Shown here one piece after another: positions 4,215 to 32,173 of a stretch of DNA of 64,000 bases. Each line of letters starts with the position of its first letter. Position 1 is the stretch's first letter. The notes under the pieces were generated by a model. That model ran no database searches, was not told the origin of the DNA, and was given only the letters and a program-made list of their open reading frames with translations. The translations under genes were made by a program, and so were the position numbers. The stretch comes from Escherichia phage ERS-1: sequence record PP337211; one strand, given 5' to 3'.

Positions 4215-5537
4215 TCACACATAAAACACATCATAACGACCACGAGTGACACCAACATAAAGAAGCTGCTGAGCTAATTCAGCATCTGCATAATGAATAC
4301 AAGGCGTATAAATGAAAGCACGGTCTACAGACATACCCTGCGCTTTATGGAATGTTGATGCAGGAAGTGCTTTCACTTTACTAAACTGTGATTTAGCATC
4401 CCAAAAATCGCTCCACGGAGCTTTTCCGCCTTTGTTCCAATTTTTATAAGTTTCTGCCGTTTTACCTAAAAATAGGTTAAACTTATACAATTCTTCATCG
4501 GATTTGAAATTATTTTAATCTTTTCACGATAATATTCATCATCGCCGTAAGTTTCTACTGTTAAATCCCAATGACGAATTAGATATTCTCCAGAAACACC
4601 ACGAGCTTTAACAAATGTTGATGTATACTCTGCTTCTATAATACGAACTAATTGTCCGTTATTAAAAATAATTTCTGACACAGGCTTTCCGTCAATTTTA
4701 TATGTTTTAATTAATGGTTCCTGCATTACAATAATTTCACCAACGATAAAATCTTTATCAGTTTCAAAAATCTTTTTGCGAATAATGCTATTTAACTTAT
4801 CAACAGATTTATTCGTAAATGCCATTACGCGATTTTCAAACAAATCATCTAGTGATTTTACAATTGAAAAATAATTTACCATAAAATCACGTAAAGCGGT
4901 ATCACCAGTAAATCCACGTACTCCATGCCCGTCAACAACTTTATCATAAATCCACTTACCGTTGCGAACATCAGTAGCTACATCAATAATAGGAGCATTA
5001 CTGCGTTTAACTTCAGTGAGTTCACACTGATAAAAATCTTTATGCGTAAAGAATGGACTGATATAAGCAGTGTTTTCTCCTGGGTCAACAGGTCTAATTT
5101 GCTTATTATCGCCTATTCCAATTATAGTACACCACGGCGGGATAGTTGAAAGCAGAATTTTAAATAGCTTTCTATCATACATTGACACTTCGTCGCAGAT
5201 TAATACTCTGCATTTAGCTAAATCCGGTACTTCTTTTGTTCAAAAAGAACGTTTTCTTCATATGTTACTGGGTTAATTTTGAGAATACTGTGAATAGTAC
5301 TCGCTTCTTTCCCTGACAGTTTTGAAAGAATCTTTTTAGCTGCATGAGTAGGAGCTGCTAAAATAATGCCAGTTTCACCCGTAGATATTAAAGCTTCAAT
5401 GATGAACTTAGTAAGAGTAGTCTTACCAGTACCGGCAGGTCCATTAATAGTTACATGATGTTTCTTTTCTTTAATAGCCCTCATAACGATGTTAAAGGCA
5501 TTCTTTTCTGGCCTTCGGTCAAATCATCAAATGTCAT
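4215..5537 (-). CDS. dda: Dda SF1B 5'-3' DNA helicase; reading frame broken at least three times
   Basis: ORFs 5218-5484 (Walker A GPAGTGKTT), 4466-5188 and 4215-4490 together match recalled T4 Dda almost residue for residue; N-terminus MTFDDLTEGQK found in a fourth frame at 5537. Confidence 0.85.
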
Positions 5538-5615
5538 CGTAAATTCCCTGCAATTGGTATACTAACAATACGCCCAGTATCTAAAATTTGCCTATATAAT
5601 CTTTGTGTGTCTACA

Positions 5616-5846
5616 TCAAGGCTTAACATGTTTAACTTCTATTTTATTAAACCAAAACTTGCGTGGAGTCTCAACTAATCTCGGAATTCCCATACCTAAA
5701 GCTAGTTTATACTGCTCTTTAAGAGTAGTAAATACTTTATCAGCAATCTCCCTTTCAAAAAATACAGCAGGACGATGTTCATCAAGAGGAACAGGCACCG
5801 CAAATCCATCTTTATCTCTATACACTATCGCATATACATAAAACAT
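5616..5846 (-). CDS. Hypothetical protein (dda.1 position)
   Basis: 76-aa ORF immediately upstream of dda. Confidence 0.35.
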   Translation of the reverse strand: MFYVYAIVYRDKDGFAVPVPLDEHRPAVFFEREIADKVFTTLKEQYKLALGMGIPRLVETPRKFWFNKIEVKHVKP

Positions 5847-5999
5847 ATTATCCTCGGATAAGTTTAAAAATTGAACAATTTAGCGGGTATCCTCTTTTCA
5901 GTTTAAGTTTATCAATAAAAGACAAGTTTTGATACCGCTCTACACCTTGAATAATTTTATCACACATATCATATTGCATTTCTGCTTCTGACAGCTTTT

Positions 6000-6596
6000 T
6001 CAAACAGTTTTCCAATCAGAGCCCTTAAGAAGAACGTTCAATTTAACAACTTCAGTGCCTTCTGCTATACGAGAACCATCAATACGAGCTTTGAGTGCTA
6101 CAATCGTTAGCTTAATGTCTGAGGTTTGTTTTGATTTAGAAAGCTGAGAAATGTGTTCAATTCGGTTTTCACGTTTTTTCTGTATAGCTTTAATTTGATT
6201 ATAAGTCTTTTTGATTTTAGCCCATTTCTTTTCATCTAAATTTAGTTTATGAACTTTTTTCGCAGATGAACGACCAATTCGCAAAGCAAATAAATCACGC
6301 TTTTCAATCAACTCTTCTAAAGTATAATCAGAACGAAATGTGTTGTACTTTTTCTTTACTGCAATAACATTCCCTTTAATGTATCCAATATTATTATCAA
6401 AACGTTCTAATGATAATTTCTCTCCTTCAATACGATTATCAAAAGGTTCTCCCGAGTAAGCGCAAACTTTCTGATCTAAAATGTTCTTAATGTAATTGAA
6501 GTCTAAGTTAAAATCTTTAGAACGTCTTTTAGCAGATGCCTGAGTATGCTCTAGACGACGTGTAATTTTACGAATTTGATTTTTAGACAGTTTCAT
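6000..6596 (-). CDS. Hypothetical basic protein (srd position); possible degenerate HNH-like CxYSG..N..N segment
   Basis: 198-aa ORF; segment CAYSGEPF..LSLERFDNNIGYIKGNVIAV resembles an HNH core with the catalytic His replaced; weak. Confidence 0.3.
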   Translation of the reverse strand: MKLSKNQIRKITRRLEHTQASAKRRSKDFNLDFNYIKNILDQKVCAYSGEPFDNRIEGEKLSLERFDNNIGYIKGNVIAVKKKYNTFRSDYTLEELIEKRDLFALRIGRSSAKKVHKLNLDEKKWAKIKKTYNQIKAIQKKRENRIEHISQLSKSKQTSDIKLTIVALKARIDGSRIAEGTEVVKLNVLLKGSDWKTV

Positions 6597-6712
6597 ATTT
6601 TTCTCACGGACGGGTTAACTACTTATACTATAACATTTTTACTTCAGTTTGTAAACAACTTTATGAAAAATGCTTTAAAACTTTCGTGGTATAATGAATC
6701 TAAGTCCTTCCA

Positions 6713-7315
6713 TTATAGATTAAATCCTTCAAAATCAAGAGTATAGATAGTGTATGTTGAATACTTTTTATACTCGTACCTATCCGCAATTCTAAATACA
6801 CTTCCAGCTGGTATCATTACTTCTTGTTCATCTGAAACTAATTCCATATTGCGATAACGATGGCTATCCGGAAATTTAAAACTTGGACTATATTCTTTAC
6901 AACGTAGAGCTTTTATAGCATACTTCTGGAAATTAAACACCATAGGAGCTTTGAATTCAAAAATAACTTGTGTGTTGTATTCTAATCCAGAAGCAAAGTG
7001 TAGAGCTATATTTTTATCATATGAAGCTGATACTACTTTATCAAATGTAATAATATCAATTCCTTGATTTAACACCTGTTTAGTCTCAACTGGAACACCT
7101 CTCCAAAGAGGTTTATCGTTTGGAACCAAATGAGATTTGATTATTTCATTTAACCAAGAATGATCGTCTGGCTTATTAGTAATACAATGAATTAAAAGTT
7201 CAATTTCGGATAAATTAAATCCTTCAGAAAGTAATTCTTCACGAATAGAAGCACGCACCGATGCATCCATTGATTCGTTTTTAAAATCTTTTAATTGCAT
7301 TGCTGAATATTTCAT
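6713..7315 (-). CDS. ADP-ribosyltransferase, ModA/ModB family
   Basis: 200-aa ORF with ordered R (LWRGV), S-x-S (VSASY) and Q/E-x-E (DEQEV) elements of the R-S-E ADP-ribosyltransferase fold; position matches modA/modB of T4. Confidence 0.55.
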   Translation of the reverse strand: MKYSAMQLKDFKNESMDASVRASIREELLSEGFNLSEIELLIHCITNKPDDHSWLNEIIKSHLVPNDKPLWRGVPVETKQVLNQGIDIITFDKVVSASYDKNIALHFASGLEYNTQVIFEFKAPMVFNFQKYAIKALRCKEYSPSFKFPDSHRYRNMELVSDEQEVMIPAGSVFRIADRYEYKKYSTYTIYTLDFEGFNL

Positions 7316-7319
7316 TCAA

Positions 7320-7935
7320 CTACCTCAACATCATACACTTTAAATTTTCCAAATGAATCGTGTAATTTTTCTTTTGAAATAGAAGTTATTTTATACTTTC
7401 CAATTGGAATCATCCATTCTTGTTCACGTACAATCATCATTAAGTTATCAGTACGTTCTGAATCTAATCCATCAGTATCTTCATATGTATACTTAAACCT
7501 CAGTATTAGGAGAAGAAAGTATAATATCGCTGATATGGTCAGAATAATTAAAAGCTTTATCAGTTTTTAAGCGAAATATTATTTCAGTGAAATATTCAAC
7601 ATAAGAAAAAGAACACGCTGTGTGCAAACTAGTAGTAAATGAATCTACTCTGCTGTTGAAAACACTTCTCCGACTTGTAAATCTTTAATGAGTTCTTTTG
7701 TCGATTTTGATATACCACGATATAGCTGATAAGGCGATTTAGTTAAATGCTTTTTAACGATTTTATTCAACTGCTGATGAAGAGCTTCATTCTTTTTGGC
7801 TTCCATACATTGCCAAAGAATTGACTGTTCAAAGTCAGTAAATTTTTCACAGACCTTTTTATACATATCATATTGAAAATCGACACTTTCAGCTTTTATA
7901 GATAACTGTTCAACATCTGCAAGATTAATAATCAT
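7320..7935 (-). CDS. Second ModA/ModB-like ADP-ribosyltransferase paralogue, frame-disrupted
   Basis: ORF 7645-7935 (..KHLTKSPYQLYRGISKSTKELIKDLQVGEVFSTAE) parallels the N-terminal half of the 6713-7315 product; the remainder is in other frames down to ~7320. Confidence 0.4.
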
Positions 7936-8196
7936 GATAGCCTCCGTATACTTCAGAAGCTATCATATCATTGTTAGGAAGGAAAGTAAACAACTTTTTT
8001 TTGAATTATTTTGCCCAGGGAGCCCAGGGCGGAGGGTCAAGATGGTATGAAGCTAGTTCTTCTAGAAGAGCATCTGGGGCTTCAATTCCATAATTCTGTA
8101 ATACTATACGGTACTCTTTCTTATAATCACTAGAATCATTCTGGATATTCGTAGAATGATTATCTTCTAACATCTCAAATAAATCCATATTAATTC

Positions 8197-9486: not shown

Positions 9487-9835
9487 AATTTTCCTTCAAT
9501 CACAAGATGTAGATGAACAACTAGAATCACAAGAACTTCCACATGAATCGCCTGCCCACACATGAACAGGAACATTAGTGTCATATGAATCAGAACTAGA
9601 CTGTGCATTCTGTGTGTTAGATGATGCAGTAGGTACTGACCAGCGCCAAGGATTTTTATATATTCTTGGGCTTCTTCATAAGTCATAGTAACTGCTTCTA
9701 CTGTTCCATCTCCCATATAAACATATTCAACTACAGTTAAAGGAAGATTGTCATTTGAAATAGGAACTACACCTTCTCCAGGAGTTGTAGAGAAAAAATC
9801 CGTAAAGAAACTTTTAAACCAATTAAAGATAAACA

Positions 9836-10042
9836 TTACAAAAAGCCTCTTTTGAATTCGACTTGCTTTTCGCCATAATCATATCGAATCTCTGCATTAA
9901 ATTCGACAGAACCATCTGCATACATCATAAATGAATGCACAACAACTTCTGTAGACCATGGCTGTAGTTCATATTTCTTCATTACATGCCGTGAAATGAT
10001 AATATCTAAATCTTCATTTGGTTTAATCCAACGATTTAACAT
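9836..10042 (-). CDS. Hypothetical protein
   Basis: 68-aa ORF upstream of soc. Confidence 0.3.
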   Translation of the reverse strand: MLNRWIKPNEDLDIIISRHVMKKYELQPWSTEVVVHSFMMYADGSVEFNAEIRYDYGEKQVEFKRGFL

Positions 10043-10138
10043 AGCGCTCTCCTCTATAAGATAATTTTATTATACCATACTCATTTTGGAAAGTAAACTG
10101 CAAAAAAAAAAGGACTCCCGAAGGAGTCCTTAAATTAT

Positions 10139-10387
10139 TTAACCACCAATAGTTACTTTCCAAAGACCTTCGTTTGCAGTAATCCATGCATCACGTTGAT
10201 TTTCTTCGTATACAGTAGTATATGCTGCTTTTTCTGAAGGGAATGTCTGGTAATGAGCGCCAGAAATTTTGTGAACGTCAGAATAAAGAGGGAAAGCTAC
10301 AGAAATTTCCTTTCCTTCAATTTTCTTATTTCCGTCTAATTTCTGCTCAAATGTTTTAATATTAACATAACCACGAGTACTAGCCAT
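10139..10387 (-). CDS. soc: Small outer capsid protein Soc
   Basis: 82-aa ORF MASTRGYVNIKTFEQKLDGNKKIEGKEISVAFPLY.. matches recalled T4 Soc in sequence and length; consensus-like RBS upstream. Confidence 0.8.
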   Translation of the reverse strand: MASTRGYVNIKTFEQKLDGNKKIEGKEISVAFPLYSDVHKISGAHYQTFPSEKAAYTTVYEENQRDAWITANEGLWKVTIGG

Positions 10388-10600
10388 GTAATTCTCCTTT
10401 TATTTAAATTACATGATTATTTATAATAAATTCTCTGCTGGAATGTTAAAATATCCAATTTTAGTTAATATAACAACATCACCATTAATAATTACCGGAG
10501 AATAATCTTCTGGAGCATTAAATTTCCAATGGCTCTAATATTATATCCATCAGAACCAATGTCTGACTAGCCGGTCTCCCGGCTCTTTGCCATGTAGAAA

Positions 10601-10801
10601 TCAAATTTCATTTTGAATGTCTATAATTAATTTTAAAGCTTCTTCACTGACAAAAATTTTGTCAGGACCTTTCATAACTTCAACCATATGAAGTTGATTA
10701 GTCAAGAGCTCACACACGAGCTCTTTGTTATAATCTTTAAATAGCTGGTCAATACGTTTCTTATGGGCTTTCTTAAGCTGATGTTTATTTAAATGAGCCA
10801 T
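10601..10801 (-). CDS. Hypothetical small protein
   Basis: 66-aa ORF between gene 56 and soc. Confidence 0.3.
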   Translation of the reverse strand: MAHLNKHQLKKAHKKRIDQLFKDYNKELVCELLTNQLHMVEVMKGPDKIFVSEEALKLIIDIQNEI

Positions 10802-11336
10802 TAATAGCCTTGGTCTTGATGAGTGAAGTTTTTAGCATTTTTCAGATAATAAAGTTTAAAGATTTCTTCAGCTGACATTCCAAGAGCAATGAATTTATTC
10901 ATGAAAAAGTGAAATTGGTCAATTAGTTCAAATTTAATTTCAAGTTGATCTTTAGGAGATAAATCTTCTAAATTTATCTTTGGATTGCATTTCAGAATAA
11001 CGTTTCTTCCAAGGTTTCCATACAGCAGAAGCTTCTTTTTGCCATTGCTCATACCACCAAAGAAGTATATAGCTCGCTGTGAGTTTTGTTGTGATATAAT
11101 GTCTTGGTTTCGCAGCCAAGCAAGAACTTCTCCCGCAGTTTCAAGTGAATCGGGATGACGATTTGTTTCTGGTTTATCGTTAGCCAAACGAATCTGTAAA
11201 TGCCGCTGCATGTCAAGCATAACCTGCAATGGGTCAATACTGTGCATACATATATAGCATATGCACGATTTGCTTTATCAACACCTTCGATCAAATGAGC
11301 ACATTCATTAAAGTAAGCCATTATTTTTCCTTTCAA
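10801..11336 (-). CDS. 56: dCTP/dUTP pyrophosphatase (MazG-like dCTPase gp56), one frameshift
   Basis: Two overlapping ORFs (11049-11336 N-terminal, 10801-11247 C-terminal) covering ~175 codons; T4 synteny between dam and soc; total length matches gp56. Confidence 0.7.
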
Positions 11337-11356: not shown

Positions 11357-12172
<816 letters not shown>

Positions 12173-12413
12173 TCATTTATTGCAGCAAAAAACGAATTAT
12201 ATAATTCTTCGTCATATGTATTTGATAGTAATACTAACACGTTTTGTGATTTAGCATATTCATTAAACCTTGCTTGGATAGTTGGATTATCAGTAAATGA
12301 TTCTCTTTTTGTCCATTTATTACGCGGATAATATCCGCATGGCAAAAAATCTAATATCATCAATGACACAGGGTTTTCAGTTTTTGTGTATTCTTTTAAT
12401 TTCTCTTTATCTT

Positions 12414-12725
12414 CTAAATATATTCCAACCGAATCAATAGCTGTACCTCCACCAACTTGATGTTTGAATTTTCAATTATATGCTTTTTACCGTTGCGAGA
12501 AATAACAATATCAAATCTTCTAGTACGCTTCTTAGTTATAAAATTAGAACAAAACAAATTATTTGATTTTTCAGTATCATCGGTTAAAACCATTTTTTCT
12601 TGATAATTAACTGAACAATCAGTGAAATATTCTTTTACTTTATTAAGTATGAAATTTTCAACTACGGCAGATATTTTATATGAATCTCCGTTTAAAGCCA
12701 TTTCATGCACAATTTTATTAATCAT
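12414..12725 (-). CDS. Hypothetical protein
   Basis: 103-aa ORF between gene 61 and dam. Confidence 0.3.
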   Translation of the reverse strand: MINKIVHEMALNGDSYKISAVVENFILNKVKEYFTDCSVNYQEKMVLTDDTEKSNNLFCSNFITKKRTRRFDIVISRNGKKHIIENSNIKLVEVQLLIRLEYI

Positions 12726-13014: not shown

Positions 13015-14042
13015 TTAAATCTTAGCATATTTAGATAGCCGCATTTTAGCCATCAACCCCTGGGCAATATTATTTTTCATATATTCCATAATTTGTTTAG
13101 GGGTTGCACCTTCCTTTCTAATCATATCATTAACATCTTTTGATTTCCAGGGAGATTTATCCCAAAACATAACCCTTTCTCCTGCATCAACTAATTTAGT
13201 CATTCGTTTAATAGTGTCAGGGTGACGGGGTTCATTATCTAAAACCCACACACGTCTATCTTTAAATGGAACAATTTCTAGGTCTAATTGACTGCCCGTA
13301 ATAGCTATACCATTTTCAATAAAAAGTGAATCTATAGGTCCTTCTAGAACATATACATCACCATCTTTGACTGTTCAACTCCATAAATTTTTGTTGCCTC
13401 AGGATAAGCTTTGATGGTGATATATTTTTGAGGAGCATCTTTCTTTAATGCACGTCCTTGAAAAGACTCAGGCTTTTCCATTAGCATTATAAATTGGAAT
13501 AACAAGACGAGGCTCAGAAATTTCCTTTTTATATGTTCCCGGTGCTATGCTATTAACCAATTTAGGCCATTCGGTTGTAAACCAAAGATATTTCCATTTA
13601 TCCTTTGGAATACAACGAGCTTTTACATATTTTATAATTGGATGGTCTTCCGCCAGTTTATCTAATCTAACACATGACGGAAGAGATTTAATTATTTTCT
13701 TCTCAGGTTGTTTAGGAAGTTCTTTAGGTTTTTCTACTGGACGACTTTTACCTTTTTCTTTTCTTATTTCAAAGATATACTCACGATATAAATCAGGTTC
13801 AAACTCCTTTAAATATATTCCGATTGGTGCATGATAGTTACAGTTATAACAATGAATATTTCCTTCATTATTATCACCATAATACCATCCACGGGCTTTA
13901 TTTTGGTGGTTTTTGAATCTCCACAAACAGGACATCTAAACCGCAATTTAAAAGTTGAACTATTATTTACTTGTGTGAATTTAGGTAAATGAGCTAATGC
14001 ACGGTATGTGAACTCATTATCAATCCAAGGTATTGATGACAT
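13015..14042 (-). CDS. 61: DNA primase gp61, frame-disrupted into three ORFs
   Basis: N-terminal zinc-binding region (CPVCGDS at 13809-14042; HCYNCNYH at 13468-13935); combined length ~342 codons as in T4; located upstream of sp/dmd/41. Confidence 0.8.
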
Positions 14043-15076: not shown

Positions 15077-16509
15077 CTAAAATTTTAATTCATTCGCTAA
15101 AGCATCTAACTGAGCTCGAGCAGATTCGTTTCTTTGATAGCGATTCTGTTCAGCCTGAATCTGCTGTGAACCTGCTACTTCGTTCACTTCAGTTGGAGTA
15201 GAATCTTGCTCAATTTCTACCCATTTCTGATTTCCTTTTTGAACACCCATCAAAAACTTATTCCATTTGTTCTTATCACCATATCGTGATTTGATTTGCT
15301 TAATGAGTTGTTGTTCAGCAGCTGCTAGCTCCTCGGTTTCAATGACCGCAAGCATAAAATCGGCTGTTGCTGGAAGACCGGCAGATTCTGCAATATCGCT
15401 CATGTTAACATCAGAAGAGTCCCAAGCTTGCTTACCAACCTGTGCTGCAGTCCAAAGAACAGTTTCGGTTTCAAACAGCCAGAGCACGCAATTCTTCTGC
15501 GATGGCTTTAACAGTTGTGTAACTATTTTCTGAATAAACTCTGATGCGGCAAGATTTACAAATACCCAGATAGTCAACAATAATGATTGTTGGAACAAAA
15601 TTCTTCTTGAGCTTCAATTCGTTCAAAAGAGAACGAAATGTATTAGCGTCTGCTCCACCAGTAGGATATTGCTTAACGATTAAACGTCCAAGAGTAGATT
15701 TCTCACGCCATTTTTCCATTTTTCCTTTATATTCAGCGTAAGAAATATGCCCATCATCAATGTCATCAAGAGAAACGTCAAGCATGTTAGCGTCAATACG
15801 TTTAGCACAGACTTCTTCTGCCATTTCCATGGAAATGTAAAGAACATTATGTCCGAGCTGCAAATAATCTGCTGCCAATGAACACAGACCTAATGACTTA
15901 CCAACGTTAACACCAGCCATTAAAACGTTCAGTGTTCCAGTTTCAGCTCCGCCTTTAGTAATTTTATTTAGAAGTTTTTGAGTTTAAATGGAACCTTACG
16001 AGCTTTATTCATATAAGATAGCCAACGTGCTTCGTAGTCATCCATCCAATCATGACCAACGTAGCTATCAAATGAAATTGATAATGCTTGACGCATGATG
16101 TCAGGAATAGCACCTACATCTGGCATTTTCTTATTTCGTTTTTCTGGAGGAAGCTCAGCATTAGTTTGAATTTCAATTATTTTAGACGTAGCATTAAACA
16201 TCGCCCTTTGCTGAACATATTTTTCTGTTTCTTTTACTAACCAGCTGTGGTCTTCTGGAGAATCAGCTAGTTTTGAAATAAGTGTTTTTACACCAGAATA
16301 TTCTGTTTCAGTAAATGAACTATTTTCTAATGCAACATTTAACGCATTAATAGATGGAACGCTATGGTATTCATTAACATGAGATTTAATTAATTTGAAT
16401 GTATTTTTAGCTGGACCACTTTCAAAATATTCTGAATCCATATATGGCCAAACTTTTGAAAAATAAGCTTGATCAGAAATATGAGATGAGAAAGAATAAT
16501 TTCTACCAC
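15077..16509 (-). CDS. 41: Replicative DnaB-like helicase gp41, frame-disrupted (at least 3 frames)
   Basis: ORFs 15968-16441, 15471-15920 (Walker A GVNVGKSLG) and 15077-15598 match consecutive parts of recalled T4 gp41; a 1-nt insertion is visible near codon 12 relative to the recalled T4 N-terminus. Confidence 0.85.
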
Positions 16510-16846
16510 ACTTACTCCTTAAAAGAATTTAAATTTTTTCTTTGACCTTTTATTAAATGCATCTTGTAGTTGCATTGTAATACATTTTTCTACATGAGGA
16601 GCTAACTCAGCTTTTCTTTCTTTTTCAAGAACAGCAAAGTTTGATTACTGCTTTTCCATCAACCCAATCTAATTTTTTACATACACAATTTGTGTAGAAC
16701 CATTTTCTGTTTAATGACAATTTCCTGGATAACATTTTCCATGGTTTAATTATCTAAGAGATTCATTAAAGTTTTTTTCTTTTCTTTCTCTCTCCCCTGT
16801 TTTTTTTTCATTTCATAATTTCTAGATCTAAATCTAAATCATCTTT

Positions 16847-18027
16847 ATTCATTAAATTCTTCCATATCACTTAACTGATCTAGGTCAGTTTCTAAATCAG
16901 CTGCTGATTTACTTTTACTTTCTGGAGATTTAAATTTTTCAACCTTTGAGTTAATCAATTCATCAACTTCCAGCTTCAACAATTTCATTACTATCAATAG
17001 CACCTAACTGATAAGCACGTTTAATAGCGTCTCGGAATGGTTGATGCTTAAATAAAGGACCCCAGAATGTAGTGCAGTTGGTATCTTTTGCACGCCAAGA
17101 TTTTTCTTCGCGAATCATCTCGCCGGTTTCTTCGTCAAGAAATTCACGAGCATACCAGCCATTTTTAGGTTTTACCACAAATCCTAATTCAAGAGCCATA
17201 TCTAACAATCCAGAATAAGGATCGATACCACCGTCAAATTTAACATCAATAAAGAATTTACTTTTTTCTTTAACGGTACGAGATTTTTCTACATTTAGAA
17301 CAAATTGATACCCCTGAAGATCAGAACCATCTTTAATCTGGCGCTTACCGATAATGAATACAGTATCAGCCGAATACATTACGCCTGTACCACCTGTCAT
17401 CACGGTTTTACTAAACATTTCAATTTTTTCAATTGTATGGTTAACCGCAACACATGGAATATTTTTAATGCTAAAATAAGGAGTAACAATACGGAATAAT
17501 GACTTCAGTGATTTAGCACGAGTCATATCTGCCACAGATTTTTCATTCAAGGCATCTTCCGTTTCTTTCTTAGAAGCCATATTACCAATTGAGTCGATGA
17601 ATACAATAACTTTTTCACCACGCTCAATAGCTTCAAGCTGATTCACCATATCAATTTTCAGCTGTTCAACTGACTGGATTGGTGTATGAATTACTCGTTC
17701 CGGGTCAACTCCCATGGATCGCAAATAAGCTGGAGTAATACCAAATTCGCTATCATAGAATAGACAAACCGCGTCAGGATATTTGTTCAAATACGCCGCA
17801 ACCATAGTCAAAGACATATTTGATTTAAAGTGTTTAGAAGGACCTGCAAAAATGGTTAAACCAGACTGCATACCGCCATCAATCGCACCAGAAATAGCGA
17901 TATTGAGCATTGGAATTTTTGTACGGATTACATCCTTTTCATTAAAGAATTTAGATGTAGTCAGTTCAGCAGTCATTTTAGAAGTGGAAGCTTTAATCAA
18001 ACGGGATTTTAAATCTGCAATAGACAT
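16847..18027 (-). CDS. uvsX: UvsX RecA-like recombinase, C-terminal frameshift
   Basis: 354-aa ORF MSIADLKSRLIKASTSK..GPSKHFKS.. (Walker A) matching T4 UvsX; acidic C-terminal tail (..LSDMEEFNE) continues in another frame to ~16847. Confidence 0.9.
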
Positions 18028-18104
18028 TCATTTTTTCCATAGGCATCATTATATTTTCCTCACTGGTTAAAGATAGGGTAATTATAACACAATAAATTTA
18101 GGCA

Positions 18105-18955
18105 TTAATCAACTGCTATTGGATGAATAGCATTAAACTTATGAAATGCTTCTGATTTTTCTTTGCGCGAAACACACATACGAAGAACCTTTAATGGCTC
18201 GTCTTCTTCACCCAACGATTTTCTCTTTTCGATATTCGATGTTTTCCAACGAGCTTGCTCTGGAAATTCTCTATTGATTTGCTCAAGCGCTCTATTATGT
18301 TTAGAATTACTACGAATTGAACTACACCCGCCAGGAGCTTGTGATTTTCCAGATACAACCAAATATTTGAACAAGGCCAAATGCGGATAACCTTGATTAA
18401 TTAAATTGAGAAATGCATACATATCTTCGCATAAATCAATTTTTCCATACCCAATTTGTTCTGTTGTTTAAGTTTTCCGAGGTCATACCAGGTATTCGTG
18501 AATCCATATGAATTTTCACGATAATTACCCCAAGATGAAGTAATTTTAAAAATTGGTAGACGAGCATGACCGTGATAATACCCGCAATCCATTGCATCCT
18601 CAACGTATTGAATTAATTCATAGAATTGCTCACGAGTCAATTGATTGACTTTATCTACACGCCGTTTATCGTCTCTCTTTCGTATTGAACTCATACGAAT
18701 AGTAGTATCATCATCAATCATCCAGATTCGTTGACCTGCATACATATCAGTAATTGCTTTACGAGTACCAGCAATTCCGTTAACATCATCAGGAATAGTT
18801 ATAATTTTAGCTCTAGACCCGTAAGCGTCATAATAAGCTTTTTCTTCGTGTTCACGTACTACAATATGAGGTTCATAATCAGTCGGAAACATATCAAGGG
18901 CAGAAACTGCCCCGACACGCTGATAACTTGGAATTACGAATTGAATCATTTCCAC
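18105..18955 (-). CDS. GT-A fold (family-2-like) glycosyltransferase at the locus where T4 carries beta-glucosyltransferase; split into two ORFs
   Basis: N-terminal VIPSYQR and DxD motif (RIWMIDDDTT); ~280 codons; does not resemble the T4 bgt N-terminus as I recall it. Confidence 0.5.
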
Positions 18956-20931: not shown

Positions 20932-23630
20932 TCAGCCAAACAGGAAGTCTAACGAAGCTTTTTCCTCATAGTCCATACCTGCCGATTCACACATACCCGC
21001 AAGTGGTTTAACAAACGATTTTTGGAACAAAGTTGAGTAGTCAATCCAAGACAGTACGTCAGAACGAATTTCTTTTGGAAGTTCTGTGCCTGATGGCCAA
21101 GCAATGCACTTGTCACCAAATGGATTTCCTTCACGTAATGGAAGAACCATTACCTTATTTCCATCCAAAATTGGAGCTACACCTAAACCACTAACAGCTC
21201 GACGATAAGTTAGTACGCCACGAATATGGAACGGGCATTTAAATCCTGGCCAACCTTTATCATCATATTTCGCTATATCGTTCGCAGTTTTTACTTCAGC
21301 AATAACTTTATAGTCAAGTTGACGATATTCTTTCTCAAAGTTCTTGTAGTATTCTTGGACAGACTCTTCACCTTCCTGAAGAATACGACGAATACTTTCT
21401 TCGAGAGCTTCTTGTACTGCTTTTGGTGTTGAACTCTGTTGAGTTTCCATACCCATAATTTTTAGATGCGGTTCAGCAAATCGTTTATCTTCCATATCAT
21501 AAACGTTCAGAGCATAACGTTTTTTCGCTTTCCAAAATCCACCAACACCCTTTGAACCAAGCGGAGGGCAAGAAATAGCTTCACGGTCCATATGCATCAG
21601 ATGCTCGCGGTTATTCATATAATCACATAACTCACGATATGCAACATCAATCATAGGTTCCATCTTTTTCTTACCAAACTGATTCATGAATTCAACTAAA
21701 TCATTTTGTTCTTTAAAGCGGTCAAGACCTACTTTTTCAATTACTTTATCTACACAAACATATACCGAATCAGTATCACCTGCTGCGATGAAATCTTCAC
21801 CATTAGTTCCACATACTTTATTCAGATATTCATTAATTTTGCGAGCAATCCACTGAATACCGACTTGACCGAAAATTGTGATAGCAGTAGCATTTCGCAA
21901 ATCATAGTAACGGAAATGAATATTACCAAGAGCACCATAAAGACTGTTAATAAGAATTTTACGGTTTCAGCTGATTTGTGTTAGCAAGTGTAGCGGCTTT
22001 TTCACATTCTTCAATCAGACTATTGAGAACAGATTCGGTGTAATTCGATAATTCGTTTAAGAAATCATCACTGAACTTAACATATCGTTCAACTTCTGGT
22101 TTAGTTGAACAAGACCCTGCACCTTTCATAATAATCTTTTTAATAGCTTCGGCATTCATTTCTTCAGCGAACATTTTCTTTTCCAATCTTTACGCTGGAA
22201 AAATACTTTAGCGATTTCCTTTGGAATGATACCTTCTTGGTGCTTATCATACATCCATCCATTCGGAGAGCAAGAATATTCATCACTTGGCTTAGGAGCT
22301 GTTCCTGCGATATATTCATGAATTGGATGAACTTTAAACTGCCCACGAATAGTCTCAGGACTAATGTTAACCTGACGAATAATGCTAGGATACAGAGACG
22401 TCAAGTCAAAACTCATAATGTATCGACGAGCAATCGGTTTAGGTTCAAACACAAATGCACCTGGCAAAAACTGTTTAACGTGCGAACCTTGTTGAGGAAT
22501 AACCTTATGTTCACCTTTCAGTGAGTTAAAAATAATAGCATCCCAAGTTTTAATAGGACTCATTACACCAGAAAAAGGCATTTTAGCATAATAAGACATA
22601 CTTAAAACTAGATCGATAAACCCACGAATTTTATCAATTGCTTGAACTGATTCTACGTCAATGATGTTATAACTAATGTATCGTTGATGATTAGTCTCAC
22701 GAAGTTTATTAATAGGACCGTCGTATGGTAATTTACCTTTTTTGGTTTCATGTTGAGCAACTGATTCCAAAGAGAATGACGGCAAATTAGTAAATGCGAA
22801 TTTCTTGTACAAATCTAAATAATCAAGAATAGATACGCCATCAATAGAATAAATTTCTTTGCTACCGTACACATTTTGAATTAGTTTAGATTTTACACGA
22901 CCGATTGGAGAGAAACGTTTCATACTGCGTTCACCCAGAATCATTTTAACGCGATTCATGATATATATGGAACGTCAAACCCCTCAATATTCCAACCTGT
23001 AAAAATAGCAGGTCGTTTCTGTTCCCAGAGATTGATATATTCCATGAGCATATCACGCTCATTATCGAACGGCATATAAATTACTGGTCAAGAATTTCTT
23101 GAGGAACTTCATCACCACCTTCACAGTCAAGCTTAGCAGCTAACTTTGCATCCCATTTTGATACTGAACCGTACATTGAATTCAAAAGGTCGAAAACATA
23201 AAAACGATCATCAATTGAATCGTAATGAGTGATAGCATCAATTTCATATTCTGCTTTCATTGGGTCAGGAAATTTATCACCAGTAACCTCAATGTCACAG
23301 TTAGCTATACGAACAAATTTTCGGTCATAAATAATTTCTGAACCATATGTATCACTGATATAAGCGAGTTTAAAATCGTTCATACCGAGAGCTTCGAGAC
23401 CGATGTCTTCCATTTGTTTCATCCAATCTCGTGCATCTTTCATTGATGGAAATTTTTGAGGAGCACAAGTTTTTACCATAAATGTCTTTGTATTTTGACT
23501 CTTCCTTACAATGCCTAAACATAGTTGGAAGATATTCTACTTCACGAGTACGTTCCTTTCCGTTTTCATCAATATAACGTTCAACAATGTTATTTCCGAC
23601 TGTTTCAATAGAGATATAAAATTCTTTCAT
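20932..23630 (-). CDS. 43: Family B DNA polymerase gp43, reading frame broken ~5 times
   Basis: ORFs 23370-23630 (MKEFYISIETVGNNIVERY..), 23081-23479, 22156-22959, 21959-22186 and 20932-21900 (..DTDSVYV.. polymerase motif C, KKRY) follow the T4 gp43 sequence in order; 3'-5' exonuclease (FDIE) and polymerase motifs present. Confidence 0.95.
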
Positions 23631-24078: not shown

Positions 24079-24637
24079 TTACCATTCCAATGCTAGTTTT
24101 TTGAGTTGTTTCTGTTCTTTTACATTCTTAGTCACTTCTTTTAAAAAATCATCCGTGACTAAACCTTTTAGTTCTTTTAATACTAAAGGAAGTTTTCCAT
24201 TTTTAGTAAGAATTGATTTATAGTTAATTGCATCATTTGTATTAACTTGATACCGCTTAGCAAGTAACTTAATAATCAATACTTCGGTAGAATCTTCGAC
24301 CAGTTTTGCCCATTTACCATATCTTTACCACGAGGAACAGCAGCCATCAGATAATTAAAATGGGCTTCATCGCTTAAACCTGATCCAATTAAATTCATCG
24401 CATATACAGCTGGCATGCATTCAGGAAATTGTGATAATGCATTCTCAACCATGTATTTTGAATAAATCTTTTTGAGCAATAGAGCATTTAGTTTTATTAT
24501 TAATAGCTCCAATTATTTCAAAAAATTCATTTTCAGCTTTTTCCTTAAAAGAATCAGCAGCAGATTGGACAGCTGTCCAATCTTTTGAATACCAAGCAAC
24601 TTGATTTTTTTTAATTGAATATCATCTTCAAATAAGT
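24079..24637 (-). CDS. 62: Clamp-loader small subunit gp62, frame-disrupted
   Basis: Two ORFs (24276-24512, 24079-24279) plus upstream coding signal fill the ~187-codon interval between gene 44 and regA; the 4-nt ATGA stop/start overlap with regA is conserved. Confidence 0.65.
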
Positions 24638-24643
24638 TTGATA

Positions 24644-25618
24644 TCACTTCCACTGCATTTCGCATGCTAATTGAATGAAAAGATATGCTAAATGTAATTC
24701 CGTATTAGCCGCAATTCCATGATACTGGTTATTTTCACCAACAATTTCATACATACGAATAATACTTTGCGGAGTTACGCGTGTATAAATTTCTTCGGCA
24801 AGTTTACCTACGAACCACGAATAATCAGCTGCATATTTTGGCGCTAAAGCTCTGAGTTGTTTAACATCTTTATTTTTGAGAGATTCAAGAACATCATCAA
24901 TAGCACCACGATCGTTAGTAACCAATGATAAAATACCAGCATCCAAAACACCTTTAGATGAATAACTATCGAGCTCGCCAATAGTTTTACGAAAATCAGG
25001 AAAATTCTTTTTAACCAAAGCTGCTACAACTTTCATATCAGCTATAGCAATTCCTTCATGCTTACAGATTTCAGTCAATCGACGAATCATCTGCTTCATC
25101 ATTTCAATTTTATCTTCATCGGTTGGTTGACCGAATGTAATAACTCGGCAGCGTGACTGAAGCGGTTTAATAATACCATCAATATTGTTAGCAGTAATAA
25201 TAATACTACAGTTTGAACTATAAGCTTCCATAAAGGAACGAAGATGTCGCTGAGACTCTGCTAACCCTGAACGGTCAAATTCATCAATAACGATTACTTT
25301 TTGACGACCATCAAATGAAGCTGCACTAGCAAAATTAGTCAAAGGACCACGAACGAAATCAATTTTACAATCTGACCCATTCACAAACATCATATCAGCA
25401 TTTACATCATGACACAATGCTTTTGCTACAGTTGTCTTACCTGTTCCTGGAGAAGGAGAATGAAGAATAATATGTGGAATTTTACCTTTACTTGTAATAG
25501 ATTTAAAGGTTTCTTTATCAAAGGCGGGAAGAATACATTCATCGATAGTAGATGGACGATATTTCTGTTCAAGAATGTGTTCTTTTTCATTTACAGTAAT
25601 CATAATTTCCTCATTCAA
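24644..25618 (-). CDS. 44: Clamp-loader ATPase gp44 (AAA+)
   Basis: Intact 324-aa ORF; Walker A SPSPGTGKTT, Walker B VIVIDEFD, SRC motif (QSRCRVI). Confidence 0.85.
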   Translation of the reverse strand: MNEEIMITVNEKEHILEQKYRPSTIDECILPAFDKETFKSITSKGKIPHIILHSPSPGTGKTTVAKALCHDVNADMMFVNGSDCKIDFVRGPLTNFASAASFDGRQKVIVIDEFDRSGLAESQRHLRSFMEAYSSNCSIIITANNIDGIIKPLQSRCRVITFGQPTDEDKIEMMKQMIRRLTEICKHEGIAIADMKVVAALVKKNFPDFRKTIGELDSYSSKGVLDAGILSLVTNDRGAIDDVLESLKNKDVKQLRALAPKYAADYSWFVGKLAEEIYTRVTPQSIIRMYEIVGENNQYHGIAANTELHLAYLFIQLACEMQWK

Positions 25619-25652: not shown

Positions 25653-26340
25653 TTAAAAATCGTGGGTAGAATCAGCTTCAAGAGCTACTACATAATTCGC
25701 ATGTTCACCTTCAAATTTAGCAGCACCTTGTTTACCTTTTGCCCAGAGCAGAAGTTTATAATTTCCTGGTTGCATTTTCATATTTGCCATATTGATAATG
25801 AAATTAAATGTATTTTCACCATCATAATCACCAAGAGTCAAAGAATATTTAACACGGGTCAAAGCAGAATCTTCTACTTTGTTAAAACCGTTAATTACAA
25901 TTTTACCTTCTTTTACTGTGATAGCAATTGTATCAATCTGCAGACCACGAGATACACGCAACAAAGTTGTTGAAGGTCTTCAGCTTTAATTTCAGTAACA
26001 ACAGATGCTACCGGGAATGGAATTGGTTTATTAGGAGCAACTACTGTACTCGGATCGGCTGCTGGCCAAAAAATTGTTGAACGAGCATCAGCAATTTTAA
26101 TATTTCCATCTTCTGACTGGGAAATTTCTGCATCATCATTAACTAGAGACAGAATACCGAGAAAACCGTTCAAATCGTAAATTGCTACATCGAAATCAAT
26201 AACGTCAGAAATATTTGCTTCCGCATAAGTTGTACCATTAACTGCGCGAGTCATAATAAATTGACCAGATTTAAGCATAATACCAGAGTTAATAGTAGCG
26301 AAATTTTCAAAATATTCAGAGTGTCTTTAGATAATTTCAT
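25653..26340 (-). CDS. 45: Sliding clamp gp45, frame-disrupted
   Basis: ORFs 25913-26278 and 25653-25964 match recalled T4 gp45 (..MLKSGQFIMTRAVNGTTYAEANISDVIDFDVAIYDLNGFLG.., C-terminal ..ALEADSTHDF); N-terminus MKLSKD at 26340 lies in a third frame. Confidence 0.8.
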
Positions 26341-26457
26341 TTAATTTCCTTCAATTCAAATGAGAATTTAATTTTATAACTAATCTAATAAAGCAATTAA
26401 CGATTAAAATCGGCAGCAATTGTTTCCGCAACAATTTGAGCAGCAACAATTAGACGT

Positions 26458-26787: not shown

Positions 26788-26796
26788 AATACACCT

Positions 26797-26985: not shown

Positions 26986-27040
26986 GTTTTTCCTCCATAG
27001 AGATTATACTCTAATAAATTAAAGCATAATCTCTTATAAA

Positions 27041-28724
27041 TTAAACCATTACAGTAAACCGACCAACTTTCTTCATTTGAAGATGCTGACCATATTCTTG
27101 CGGGTCATGGTCTTTATGCGAAATTATAAAAACATTAGTATTTTTCATTGAATTTATAATATTAGCTACACCTTTAATACCTTCGGCATCAAATGACCCA
27201 TCAAACACTTCATCAAGAATTAATGTACTAATACTAACACCAGATACGATAGAAGCAATATCACGCCAAGTAAATAAAAGAGCAATATCGATTCGTGCTT
27301 TTTCACCTTCACTAAATGAAGCATAACTAAAATCTTCACGACCACGGGATTTAATTGTCTCATTAAATTCTTCATCTAATGTAAACACATAATCCGCTTC
27401 CATTATTTTAAGATAATGGTTAATCTGCTTATTAAATAATGGAATGTACTTTTTAATAATAGCACCTTTAATACCAGAATCTTTGAGCATATCAGTCAAA
27501 ATTCCTCTGTGGTATTTTTCCATTACTAAATTAGTTTTCGTCTTAACAATTTTATCAAGTTCTTCTTGAAGCAGTGCTATTTCATCAGCATGGTCAATAA
27601 ACTCGGATGATGCTTTTTCTATAGCTGCTTTAACTTTTTTAGCTTTATCTACCGTCGTGATTAGAGATTGCTTTTTATTGCGAATATCATTCGCCAACGT
27701 CTGCTGGGTTTTAATATTATCTCGGTATTCATCAACGAGAACTTTTAAATTATCACGATGTGTTGAAAGCTGTTCAAACGAATGTGTGCATTCAGAAACT
27801 TTATCTTTAATTTTAGAAACAACTTTATCACCGGAACTTAATTGTGACAAACAGGTTGGACATAATCCACCTTCGTGATACATATTAATGACTTTATTAT
27901 ACGAGTCAATTTTTGATTTAATTAAAAATGCTTCTTGACCGATTTTATTAAATGCATCAGTCTGGGTCTTCATCCAAAACAATATTAACTAATCTTTCAT
28001 TAGTTTCTTCTATTTCCGATTTTAATTTTCTAGTTTCTTTTGCCAAATCATCATACATATTCTGCAGACGAGTAAGGTTATCACCAGTTAATTTTTTCTG
28101 GCGTTCAACGTTATCATTATATATTTTAATTTGTTGGATAATACTATCTTTTTTAACATCAAGCACTTGGTTTTGTGAATTTAATTCACGTATTAGTGCT
28201 TTATTAAGCTTATCCATTTCAGCTAATGTTCCTACCTCGAGCAGGTCTTCCACAAGCTTTCTTCGCGCAGGGGTCGACAAACCCATGAAAGGGGTATACC
28301 CTGCTGTACCAAGGACAACAATCTGTTTGAAACTGGCATATGACATTCCGATAAGCTGTTCAAATTCTGCTTGGAAATCTTTACTGCTGGCAGATTCATT
28401 AAGACGTGTACCGTTAACGGTGATTTCGAAAACGTTTGGTTTTTGTCCTCTTTTGATATAGTACTTTTTCTCATCATATTCCATCCACAGTTCAACTAAA
28501 AGTTCTTTCTTATTTGTGCTGTTTATTAATTGGCCTTTCTTTACATCACGGAATGGCTTGCCAAAAAGCCCAAATGTGATGGCTTCTAACATAGTAGACT
28601 TACCACCGCCATTTCGTCCAGTAATAAGAGTTTTTTGAACCTTATCTAATTGAATGTCAACTCCATTTTGACCAACTGACATTATATTTTTATATTTTAC
28701 TCTATTAAGTTTAAAATTCTTCAC
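27041..28724 (-). CDS. 46: Recombination endonuclease subunit gp46 (SbcC/Rad50-like ATPase), one frameshift
   Basis: N-terminal ORF with Walker A GRNGGGKST; C-terminal ORF with coiled-coil region, signature motif (SFSEGEKARIDIALLF) and Walker B (LILDEVFD); total ~560 codons. Confidence 0.85.
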
Positions 28725-28984
28725 AAAAGATTCCTTTTAATGTATCTTTTAGACCATTCTATCATATCATCATAATCTAAAAAGTATTCATCAAATTCAG
28801 CCATGCAAACAACACCTTGCGCTGCTTTTGATGTGATATAAATTATTCCAACATATCTAGAATCTTCTTCGGTGTAATCAATATTTGCTATGAATTCATC
28901 GTTAATGTCAAATGTCGAAAACTTCACAGTATGCATCCTTAATACAAGATACAGCCATATCTTGTAATGATTTAGGTGTATCAT
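28721..28984 (-). CDS. Hypothetical small protein (46.1 position)
   Basis: 87-aa ORF. Confidence 0.3.
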   Translation of the reverse strand: MIHLNHYKIWLYLVLRMHTVKFSTFDINDEFIANIDYTEEDSRYVGIIYITSKAAQGVVCMAEFDEYFLDYDDMIEWSKRYIKRNLL

Positions 28985-29171
28985 TATCTAAAATGTTGAA
29001 GTTAAAAGATACAGCCCAGTCAGTGCAGACCGTAACCTTTTTAATACAATTATCTTCAACCTCTAGCGGTTCAAACCAATATTCAATAATTTCTTTATGC
29101 CCAATATCATCTTTTACTTCGCATTCAAAATGCTGACTCATCATAACATTTTTAAATTCATCAAAAGTCAT
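28908..29171 (-). CDS. Hypothetical small protein (46.2 position)
   Basis: 87-aa ORF. Confidence 0.3.
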   Translation of the reverse strand: MTFDEFKNVMMSQHFECEVKDDIGHKEIIEYWFEPLEVEDNCIKKVTVCTDWAVSFNFNILDNDTPKSLQDMAVSCIKDAYCEVFDI

Positions 29172-30191
29172 TGTGTTGCCTCTACATATAACTGATTTGC
29201 ATATTGAATAAGTGCTTCGCGGTCAGAATCAGTGATGTCTGGAATTGCATTAATGTATTCTTCCATCAACGTCTGAAGAGATTGAACTTCAACTTCTTCA
29301 CTATCATCTGACTCGACAGAGTTATCAATCTTTGACACAACTCGTAATGAATGCACAACTTTTTCTAGTTCAGATTCGAACTTCGTTAGATTTTTGTCTA
29401 CTTCAGTTACTATAACACGTACTGATAGATTTGTAAAATCTTTATAGTCAATTTTTCCCTTAAATGGATATTGAATTCGACGATGCCAGGTGGTGTTGTT
29501 TGGAATAAATTCCATTCGTTCTGTTTCTGTATCAAACATCCAGAACCCGCGAGGGTCATTCTCGTCACCTGCAGTTAGTGTCCATGGTGTCCCAATATAT
29601 CTGACGTTAGCAGCCTCAGAGATAGTATGGAAGTGACCAGACCACACCTCTTTATAAGTCTTAAGGAAATCAGGTTCAAGACCGTGAGATTTCATTCCTT
29701 TATAAAAATAAAATCCATTCAGTTCCCAGTGACCAACACAAAAAGAAGCAGATGAAGTTTTGATGTGTTCAAGAATTTCACCAGTATTTTCTTCACACAT
29801 CCAAGGAATTAAATCAATCAAACATCCGTCAAAATCTACTGTAGTAGGCTTATCATATACTTTAACATTAGGATATTTAGCCAAAAGCTCAGTAGAGGCA
29901 TTTGGATGCATTACATTTTTATAGTGGAGATCGTGATTTCCTACAATAGTGTGTAATGTAGACAATTCCAGCATCATCAAGCGTTTGAACTATTTCACGA
30001 GCAAACTCCATAGTTTTATGTGTGATTGCTTTTCGCACATCAAAAATATCACCGTATTGAATCCAGGTAGTAATTCCATTTTTCTTAGAATATTCTATCG
30101 CTTGCTTAATTCCGTCAATTTGAATACCGCGAATCCACTCATCATCAGCTTTAACGCCTAAATGCCAATCACCTAAATTTAAAATTTTCAT
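29168..30191 (-). CDS. 47: Recombination nuclease subunit gp47 (SbcD/Mre11-like metallophosphoesterase), one frameshift
   Basis: N-terminal ORF MKILNLGDWHLG (phosphoesterase motif I), downstream ORF with ..VGNHDLHY.. (GNHD motif); total ~340 codons. Confidence 0.85.
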
Positions 30192-30206
30192 GGTGTCTTT
30201 TCCATC

Positions 30207-30900
30207 CTAATTTAGCTGCTTTTGAAACCAGTTCTTTAATTTTTCCTTTGTCCATTCAGGACCAGGAGGTTCATGACATAACATTTGCTTAACTCCGTTA
30301 TTATACCATTTTTTACCTTTATTATGTGATGAAGCTTTAAATTTATTTGACCTTCCTTTTACATAACCTTCTGAATATAAGGCAAAAAGGGCAGATTTTC
30401 CTGTTAATGGATCATGTGAATGTATATTTCCTTTACAATTATGAGAACCATATAATGGATGATTTTTGTCCTTTATTATCTCTTCCAAATGAACCTTTTG
30501 GAGCAGCATATGACATATTAAAGAATAATGGATTTTTAACTGCATCATGCAATCGTTGATAATATAACTCGCATTTAATAGCTTCTTCACGCGTATCAAA
30601 TTCAGCTAAAATGCATGAATCAAATAAGTGAGGATTATCTGAAAGCTCTTTATTATAAATTTTCTTATACTTTTTAGATAAAAACTGAACCATGATATCC
30701 AGCTAAATGCCTATCTAAAGACGTAGATCCAATATAAAAAGGAGGAAGTTTATCTCCACTATATATTGTTAAATAAGTTATATATTTTTCATATATCAAG
30801 AACCGTCATTGAAATGCAAAATAAAATTATTGAAATAAATCCATCTGGAGTGCTAAAGAACCCAATCCAACATGCTCTGGTGAATAGATAAAATGCAAGA
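30207..30900 (-). CDS. Homing-endonuclease-like protein (GIY-YIG/Seg-type features), frame-disrupted
   Basis: ORF 30439-30693 ends in a GIY-YIG-domain-like segment (..AEFDTREEAIKCELYYQRLHD..); ORF 30207-30599 carries a KxWYNNG-type motif common in phage GIY-YIG endonuclease linkers; free-standing position between 47 and a-gt. Confidence 0.35.
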
Positions 30901-30970
30901 AAAAGTATCACATATCCAAGAAATATCATTATATCAAACTCCCGTATAAAGCTAAAGGGCCGAAAGCCCT

Positions 30971-32173
30971 TTATTTTGTAATAATGTCAAACTGTTCTTT
31001 AAAGCAGAAGCTTGAATCTTGATGCTGATACAAAAATTCATACGCTTTTTCGCGTTCACGGTCATAAAGAGCTCGGTCAGATGACAGTTCTTTAATACGT
31101 TCGAATGTCGATTCCATGTCATTTTCATCAAACCAAATGATACCGCTATCATGTGAGGTCAAAGGAGTATTATCAACACGGAATTTTAAATTTTCGCCAG
31201 TAGATTTCCAAAAACAGGAATTGTACCGCAAGCACCTAATTCAAGATGAGTATATTCGAGTGAGCGTTGTAGATATTTTTATCTAATTTACTCAGCTGAT
31301 AACCAAAGCCGGATTTACTCATGCGTTCAAGCATTTCGCTATTTACATAACGGTCAAGAATTTGCGTTGGCAAATTAGGAGCAATTTTAATTTGATCTAC
31401 TTGATGAAGACCGTAATATTCATACGGAATACCTTTTTCCTTAATTGCAATAAAAGCAGGGGAAACGTTCAAGACCTTCCAATACAGTGGATTTACCAGC
31501 AGGTTTTAAGAATTTTTCATGAAAATCAAACATCTGATAAAAACCTTTCCATGTAGTCGTACGACCAATCCAACGGTTGACATTCATGTTAATTTCAGAA
31601 ACATCTTTCCAGTAGGTTGATCGAACTTTCGCAATATCCATAGGAGGCTGAAAGTTGTATACGGTCGGTGCTTCTTCAATATCATCAAACAGAGAAACCG
31701 TTTCTGGATACCATTCTTTCATCAGAACTTTATTAAAATCGCCATTATCAGAATGACTAAAAATAACATCAGCTCGACGAACAGTTTCTTCTAATCCCAA
31801 ATTTCGGCGCAAAGAAAGCACAGAATGATCATGTTGATAAACTACAACACGAATAGAAGGTTTAATATTATCTAAAAGTTTTTTATAGTTATTAATCGTA
31901 GCTTCTTGAACGGAAGTAGCAGGAACAGAATTAATAATTAGAATATCACAATCATTTACCAGTCTTAAGTGCTTTATCGTATTCTTTAGCTAAAATAACT
32001 GGAATTGAAAATGATTTGTGGTCATGAGAACTTGTACGAGTAAATGATTTATCTTTAGCATAAACCAAAGTTACTTCATGACCATTTTTAATAAACCAAT
32101 CACGTTGCTCAAGAGAAAATTTAGTTACGCCACAACCTTCAAGACCTCGAGCCATAAAAATACATACTTTCAT
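30971..32173 (-). CDS. agt: DNA alpha-glucosyltransferase, frame-disrupted into at least 4 ORFs
   Basis: ORFs 31952-32173 (MKVCIFMARGLEGCGVTKFSLEQRDWFIKNGHEVTLVYAK..), 31441-31821, 31236-31472 and 30971-31231 follow recalled T4 alpha-gt in order; total 1203 nt matches the 400-aa protein. Confidence 0.7.

Follow-up and report, generated by a model that had tools for sequence, protein, structure and literature searches.

The polisher Racon works with windows of 500 nt by default and emits windows with too little read support unchanged. In its default mode, a partial-order-alignment consensus is computed for each non-overlapping window and the results are then spliced (PMC5411768). A window length of 500 has been used with Racon in published pipelines (PMC12484256), and overlapping windows have been found to raise the identity reached by up to 0.06% (PMC5411768). 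We examined here a stretch of 64,000 nucleotides (nt) from the record PP337211 of Escherichia phage ERS-1 (hereafter the window), in which the genes of a long T4-like segment are broken by frameshifts. This gene breakage is artefactual and has no biological basis. Very probably, the window derives from a long-read-only Oxford Nanopore (ONT) assembly or from a corrected chimeric read, in which a consensus computed in 500-nt windows left the insertions and deletions (indels) that split the genes. In the phage itself, the genes are almost certainly intact.

Frameshifts, private indels and their spacing

The window was searched with T4 proteins by tblastn. The products of dda, 41 and 43 were each recovered in four pieces lying in three frames, that of a-gt in five pieces in three frames, and gp61, dam, gp45, gp46, gp47 and gp62 in two frames each. 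All these genes had been listed in an earlier note, made from the letters alone, as split across frames while remaining T4-like at the protein level, and every one of them proved to be so. Their identity to T4 was mostly 88-100% per piece (97-100% for dda, 41, 45, 46 and 47), with lower values where pieces overlap or where a phage other than T4 is the nearest relative. The genes srd, modB, 56, 40, uvsX, imm, rpbA and 55 were also split. Unbroken genes were 44, regA, dexA, nrdH and modA, and the alignment of gene 42 stays in one frame, its final 7 codons being lost through indels. The open reading frame (ORF) map is fragmented at 4215-32173, the part to which the earlier note had confined the damage; the breakage exceeds these limits and spans the entire T4-like segment (51-36687). 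In a nucleotide alignment of 19 core genes (18.6 kb) to phage JK23, the window presented 40 frameshifting indels, while the same procedure applied as a control gave 0 for S2_01, 6 for T4, 2 for PinkRuby and 2 for T2.

The window was then aligned to five T-even genomes (S2_01, JK23, T4, PinkRuby and T2), and 112 indel clusters were left without any gap-free reference. For 97 of these clusters (53 insertions and 44 deletions), the net length was non-zero and identical against all aligning references, that is at least three of the five, which rules out natural divergence as their source. A 2-nt insertion at 15974 in gene 41 was missing from 721 of 721 matching phage records, and another at 22961 in gene 43 from 526 of 526; at both sites the best records showed 69 subject bases for 71 query bases. 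A 40-mer across the lattice insertion in dda had no exact match in viral, genome and metagenome contigs, and no identical protein was retrieved for the truncated uvsX ORF. Indels shared by independent isolates, which according to the earlier note would have spoken for biology, were therefore not what we observed, since 97 are private with respect to five genomes and the two that were tested are absent from more than 500 phages. Also, no conserved frame change at a recoding site, as expected for programmed frameshifting or bypassing, was found among the 97 indels against at least three of the five references or at the two sites in more than 500 records. Alignment to JK23 alone gave about 146 indels, many of which were natural mosaic differences that disappeared with better local references; the alignments of motB and 56 were much improved with PinkRuby or T2 as reference.

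The private insertions are regularly spaced. Their best period was 499.1 nt with a Rayleigh R of 0.80, whereas 300 random simulations over the same period grid never exceeded 0.44, and the same analysis of the private deletions gave no periodicity. Lattice points were set in 500-nt steps from position 1 of the window, and a private indel at most 12 nt away was counted as a match. On this basis, 43 of the 73 lattice points were occupied versus 5.4 expected by chance (binomial p ~6e-30), the earliest matches being at 501, 1508, 2005 and 3002, and a 44th occupied point, at 30463, was seen by comparison with phage teqhad. The lattice indels are nearly all insertions of +1 to +4 nt, and most frameshifts in conserved genes are due to them (e.g., in genes 41, 43, dda, 46 and 47). 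The lattice has its origin at position 1, where the record opens with a read-start adapter.

The phase of the lattice slips in two hypervariable intervals, first by -19 nt (9495 to 10976) and then by -9 nt (11475 to 12466), and these shifts remain downstream. Such persistent slips fit windows that were set on a draft differing locally in length from the final consensus, and they do not match a rule imposed on the final or the true sequence. The spacings between neighbouring lattice indels had a standard deviation of 2.6 nt, and 2 of 22 were exactly 500, with an indel placement that is ambiguous by a few nt. When exact-500 spacing was compared in final and in indel-removed coordinates, this ambiguity blurred the short range, so that only the long-range slips are informative. 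Our data show a consensus computed in windows with a fixed length of 500 nt.

Chained reads and sequence quality along the window

Near 37 kb, the GC content of the window jumps from 31-37% to 65-72%. We located ONT library sequences by reading the ends and the junction of the window and by a fuzzy-match scan over its length. The order of elements proper to ONT native barcoding is present, with adapter, AAGGTTAA, 24-nt barcode and CAGCACCT at read starts, and the reverse complement with GCAATACGTAACTGAACGAAGT at read ends. The T4-like segment bears different native barcodes (NB) at its two ends, NB03 at the start and NB02 at the end. The barcode that closes the chain of barcodes and adapters at 57685-58130 is presumably NB05 of the ONT barcode set. 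The barcodes NB02, NB03 and NB04 and their flanks agree with published oligonucleotide lists (bioRxiv 10.1101/2021.06.06.447246), and the adapter sequences agree with those given in the Porechop_ABI preprint (bioRxiv 10.1101/2022.07.07.499093). At least five nanopore molecules (NB03, NB02, NB02, NB04, NB05), linked via adapter and barcode sequences, make up the window, which opens a chimeric long-read record left untrimmed and not demultiplexed. Where the T4-like part meets two stretches resembling Pseudomonas Yuavirus genomes, the junctions are library or assembly chimeras and not biological joins.

These two Yuavirus parts (36971-57684 and 58131-64000) have a uniform identity of about 82% to every relative, including PaTs-2 and LKO4. 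They contain 539 gap openings in 13.2 kb, with a strong deletion bias and read-strand-specific errors, and their error amounts to 6-34% per 250-nt bin in all bins. Neither polished windows nor lattice-aligned quality steps were found in these 250-nt bins, the sequence being raw throughout. The Yuavirus parts are unpolished raw reads.

In both of these reads, despite their opposite genome strands, substitutions affected 19-24% of the reference A and deletions 10-17%, and the error at G was only about 8%. Yuaviruses such as M6 carry hypermodified thymidine, and this hypermodification is a possible cause of the poor basecalling of the Yuavirus reads.

An internal gauge of raw-read quality for T4-like DNA of the same run is given by a 230-nt AT-rich fragment at 57772-58004, which has NB04 on either side and of which 68 nt align to T-even gene 59 (helicase loader) with 87% identity. 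The raw stretches of the record, including this T4-like fragment at 57.8 kb, have 13-18% error. The long T4-like part has about 0.3% indels and is about 99.7% correct, essentially without substitution errors. Its nearest database matches reach only about 95.7% identity, and this reflects natural divergence. Further indication of its quality comes from a gene for an HNH homing endonuclease, which is found in teqhad, ECO4 and G2540 (98.5% identity) and not in T4, JK23 or S2_01, and which belongs to the ordinary mobile insertions of T-even genomes. This segment of about 600 nt presents zero substitutions and 6 single-base indels relative to teqhad, one of them at lattice point 30463 and 4 of the 6 within runs. 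The lack of substitutions therefore indicates that substitution errors were polished out and that only indel errors were left.

The substitutions that separate the T4-like part from JK23 are distributed as in functional genes. Codon position 3 holds 1016 of the 1474 coding substitutions (69%), and the counts at positions 1/2/3 are 2/0/49 in dda, 2/2/62 in gene 41, 7/2/70 in gene 43, 0/1/25 in uvsX and 0/0/32 in dexA. From this third-position excess it follows that the genes evolved under purifying selection. The relaxed selection expected of pseudogenes or of a decaying genome was not seen, as the essential genes have close to zero changes at positions 1 and 2.

Windowed consensus and alternative origins of the indels

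We propose that a multiplexed native-barcoded run was neither demultiplexed nor adapter-trimmed, and that the window would be the first 64 kb of the resulting assembly or corrected read. The backbone would chain a 36.6-kb T4-like stretch, short fragments and two Pseudomonas Yuavirus reads via adapter and barcode sequences. The consensus would have been run on this backbone in fixed, non-overlapping 500-nt windows starting from its first base, and the window results spliced. T4-like coverage would have removed the substitution errors, with 1-4 spurious bases staying at about 60% of the splices. The other leftover nanopore errors would be single-base deletions, most notably those of C in T[C]G (the bracketed base being the one deleted), and some homopolymer-length errors, and windows without coverage, among them the whole Yuavirus part, would keep the raw backbone. 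The result would be about 100 indels, by which dda, 41, 43 and others would be split across frames. The Racon-type step on this backbone of untrimmed reads may have been either the contig polishing of a miniasm-like unitig or a read correction. We infer that the tool was Racon or a Racon-based pipeline (Raven, Unicycler long-read mode, pomoxis), and how bases at the window edges came to be left uncorrected is likewise an inference.

Some points weigh against this explanation or limit it. CONSENT and PacBio GenomicConsensus (500-nt chunks) also use windows of about 500 nt. To explain NB03 at the start of the T4-like segment and NB02 at its end, either an assembled backbone or a ligation chimera is needed. 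Also, three dense clusters of 5-18 small indels each, at 1672-2754 (motB/motB.2), 10436-11260 (soc.1-56) and 16640-16810 (gene 40), lie in hypervariable regions and have an indel density far above that of the remaining segment, and in them error and natural divergence are only partly separable. These clusters may come from low coverage, from a poor consensus of mixed T4-like strains or barcodes, or from the lack of a close reference. As for precedents, our literature search found no explicit published description of Racon boundary insertions, only the comparison of overlapping with non-overlapping windows (PMC5411768).

The off-lattice deletions have a pattern of their own. Among 40 private single-base deletions, 16 remove a C, a base that makes up 19% of the sequence (p = 0.002). 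Eight of the 40 are T[C]G deletions, in a context that covers 0.8% of positions (p = 1e-9), and no deletion is of the complementary type C[G]A, though that trinucleotide is equally common. On the plus strand, the T[C]G deletions are at 2532, 2613, 7655, 11041, 11101, 13373, 13908 and 23086. Runs of at least 4 identical bases contain 7 of the 40 deletions (about 10% expected), and 24 of the 40 are at non-repeated bases (50% expected). Homopolymers thus contribute to the indels as a minority class. The earlier note had asked whether the indels cluster in homopolymers, and this holds for a minor component only, the dominant classes being insertions at window boundaries and deletions of C in T[C]G. 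We speculate that the T[C]G deletions are a strand-specific systematic error, perhaps due to the basecalling of glucosyl-hydroxymethylcytosine DNA at modest coverage. That some off-lattice deletions, with those in T[C]G as candidates, are real population variants or a true lesion or modification signal of glucosyl-hydroxymethylcytosine DNA appears to us very unlikely; if the T[C]G deletions were such a modification signal, T-even cytosine hypermodification in this context would have a nanopore signature that is reproducible.

The T4-like part could also be a raw or lightly processed nanopore read, with frameshifts at homopolymers and a periodicity produced by the stitching of basecaller chunks. 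The nanopore origin is certain and some indels do lie in T or A runs. However, raw reads within the same record are wrong at 13-18% of bases against about 0.3% indels here, just 7 of the 40 single-base deletions fall in runs of at least 4, and the chunks of a basecaller have a fixed duration and not a fixed number of bases, so that a spacing of 500 +/- 3 nt would be unexpected given the variation of pore speed. We consider this origin highly improbable.

A script that introduced indels at 500-nt steps and at random sites into a clean T4-like sequence, as a decoy or a simulation, would explain the regular spacing of about 500 nt, neighbouring points being within +/-5 nt of 500, and simulators such as Badread do add ONT adapters and chimeras. 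Such a script would not be expected to slip by -19 and -9 nt in hypervariable regions and to stay shifted, to occupy only about 60% of its lattice points, or to delete strand-asymmetrically, with T[C]G affected 8 times and C[G]A never. Four different native barcodes, all genuine and correctly flanked, would also be unexpectedly realistic, as would the mini-reads and the raw reads with their base-specific error profiles. The deliberate perturbation of the sequence, which the earlier note had left as an alternative, is therefore unsupported and in our view slightly less probable still than a raw read, and the phase slips fit the draft coordinates of a polisher.

A biological origin, either as a decaying T4-like genome with pseudogenes or as programmed frameshifting or bypassing like that of T4 gene 60, has next to no probability: although phage populations do contain mutant genomes and T4 has one translational bypass, in gene 60 and located outside the window, it would have to reconcile about 100 lesions across nearly all essential replication genes with strong purifying selection in the substitutions, with tested indels that no relative carries, with an insertion lattice that disregards gene boundaries, and with sequencing adapters flanking the T4-like segment. 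The judgement of the earlier note that the lesions come from sequencing or assembly rather than from biology is thus borne out by the embedded adapters and barcodes, the purifying selection, the private indels and the 500-nt lattice.

Given a windowed nanopore consensus as the origin of the indels, the apparent pseudogenes, gene boundaries and split genes at 1-36.7 kb of the window are all unreliable. The sequence at 36.7-64 kb is raw-read noise attached via adapters, and its phage-phage junctions are not biological. Record PP337211 deserves a quality flag. The insertion lattice of about 500 nt and the AAGGTTAA-N24-CAGCACCT barcode motif may serve as cheap flags for similar records.

Features of the window and comparison with known systems

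The coordinates of the library elements, reads and broken genes are collected in Table 1. Two further features of the T4-like segment concern its gene content. At about 18030-18951, a T2/T6-type beta-glucosyl-HMC-alpha-glucosyltransferase (HMC, hydroxymethylcytosine) replaces the b-gt of T4, and the seg-type endonuclease found beside gene 42 in JK23 is missing in the ERS-1 window. This exchange of glucosyltransferases and the absence of the seg-type endonuclease are normal T-even mosaicism.

Table 1. Library elements, reads and genes in the 64-kb window of record PP337211, with the positions of frameshifts (net length in nt; "lattice" marks an indel at a point of the 500-nt lattice).
Feature	Coordinates	Strand	Details
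Read start	1-50	+	First bases of the record; ONT ligation adapter tail (..TTGCT), followed directly by AAGGTTAA, native barcode NB03 and CAGCACC at 11-49
Polished T4-like (Tequatrovirus) segment	51-36687	-	Colinear with T4 5.66-43.78 kb (39.2 to nrdD start); every gene on the minus strand
dda helicase	4218-5537	-	Frameshifts 4503 (+2, lattice), 5233 (-1, C), 5502 (+2, lattice)
dam methyltransferase	11385-12163	-	Frameshifts 11475 (+2, lattice), 11731 (-1, G), 11919 (+1)
Gene 61 primase	13018-14042	-	Frameshifts 13373 (-1, T[C]G), 13471 (+1, lattice), 13908 (-1, T[C]G)
Gene 41 helicase	15080-16509	-	Frameshifts 15473 (+1), 15974 (+2), 16475 (+2); all lattice, 501 nt apart
Gene 40	16522-16852	-	7-8 small indels packed in 16640-16810; no ORF of at least 40 aa remains
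uvsX	16848-18021	-	Frameshift 16970 (+1, lattice)
Gene 43 DNA polymerase	20935-23630	-	Lattice frameshifts 21965 (+1), 22961 (+2), 23467 (+1); further frameshifts 22179 (-1, T run), 23086 (-1, T[C]G)
Gene 62 clamp loader	24082-24645	-	Frameshifts 24327 (-1), 24466 (+1, lattice), 24610 (-1), 24640 (+1)
Gene 45 sliding clamp	25656-26342	-	Frameshifts 25964 (+2, lattice), 26320 (-1)
Gene 46	27044-28724	-	Frameshift 27963 (+1, lattice)
Gene 47	29171-30191	-	Frameshift 29960 (+4, lattice)
HNH homing-endonuclease gene	30191-30786	-	Between gene 47 and a-gt
a-gt alpha-glucosyltransferase	30974-32173	-	Private frameshifts 31214 (-1), 31281 (-1), 31465 (+1, lattice), 31963 (+1, lattice)
End of T4-like segment	36688-36759	+	AGGTGCTG, NB02 reverse complement (36688-36732), TTAACCTT, ONT read-end adapter (AGCAATAC.AACTGAAC.AAGTACA)
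Mini-read	36769-36970	+	Adapter and AAGGTTAA; 81-nt T4-like fragment (36783-36863, gene 55.5 region, opposite orientation); AGGTGCTG, NB02 reverse complement (36929-36967), TTAACCTT, AGCA
Raw Pseudomonas Yuavirus-like read	36971-57684	+	About 82% identity, about 4% gap openings, deletion-biased
Barcode/adapter chain	57685-58130	+	NB02 forward; adapter and NB04; 230-nt T4-like fragment; NB04 reverse complement and full adapter; adapter and NB05 (presumed)
Second raw Yuavirus-like read	58131-64000	+	About 82% identity; opposite genome strand

The T4-like segment shares with other Tequatrovirus genomes (T4, T2, JK23, S2_01, PinkRuby, teqhad) a colinear gene order from 39.2 to nrdD, 92-98% identity at the DNA level and 97-100% at the protein level per in-frame piece. 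It differs from them in reaching at most about 96% identity overall to any database genome, because the ERS-1 T4-like genome is a mosaic. It also differs by its T2-type glucosyltransferase, by the HNH endonuclease gene that separates 47 from a-gt and by about 100 indels of artefactual origin.

Compared with untrimmed or chimeric reads of ONT native-barcoding libraries, the window presents the expected order of elements at every junction, that is the adapter tail, AAGGTTAA-barcode-CAGCACCT, the reverse complement and the read-end adapter. The difference is that this record chains four barcodes (NB02-NB05) and two unrelated phages.

Finally, the likeness to window splicing of the Racon type lies in a period equal to the usual window length, in a lattice anchored at the first base, in errors located within a few nt of the splices, and in uncovered windows left as raw backbone. 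A difference is that nearly all splice errors observed here are small insertions (+1 to +4). They occur at roughly 60% of the splices and make up about 0.12% of bases, a figure somewhat above the gain reported for overlapping windows (up to 0.06%).

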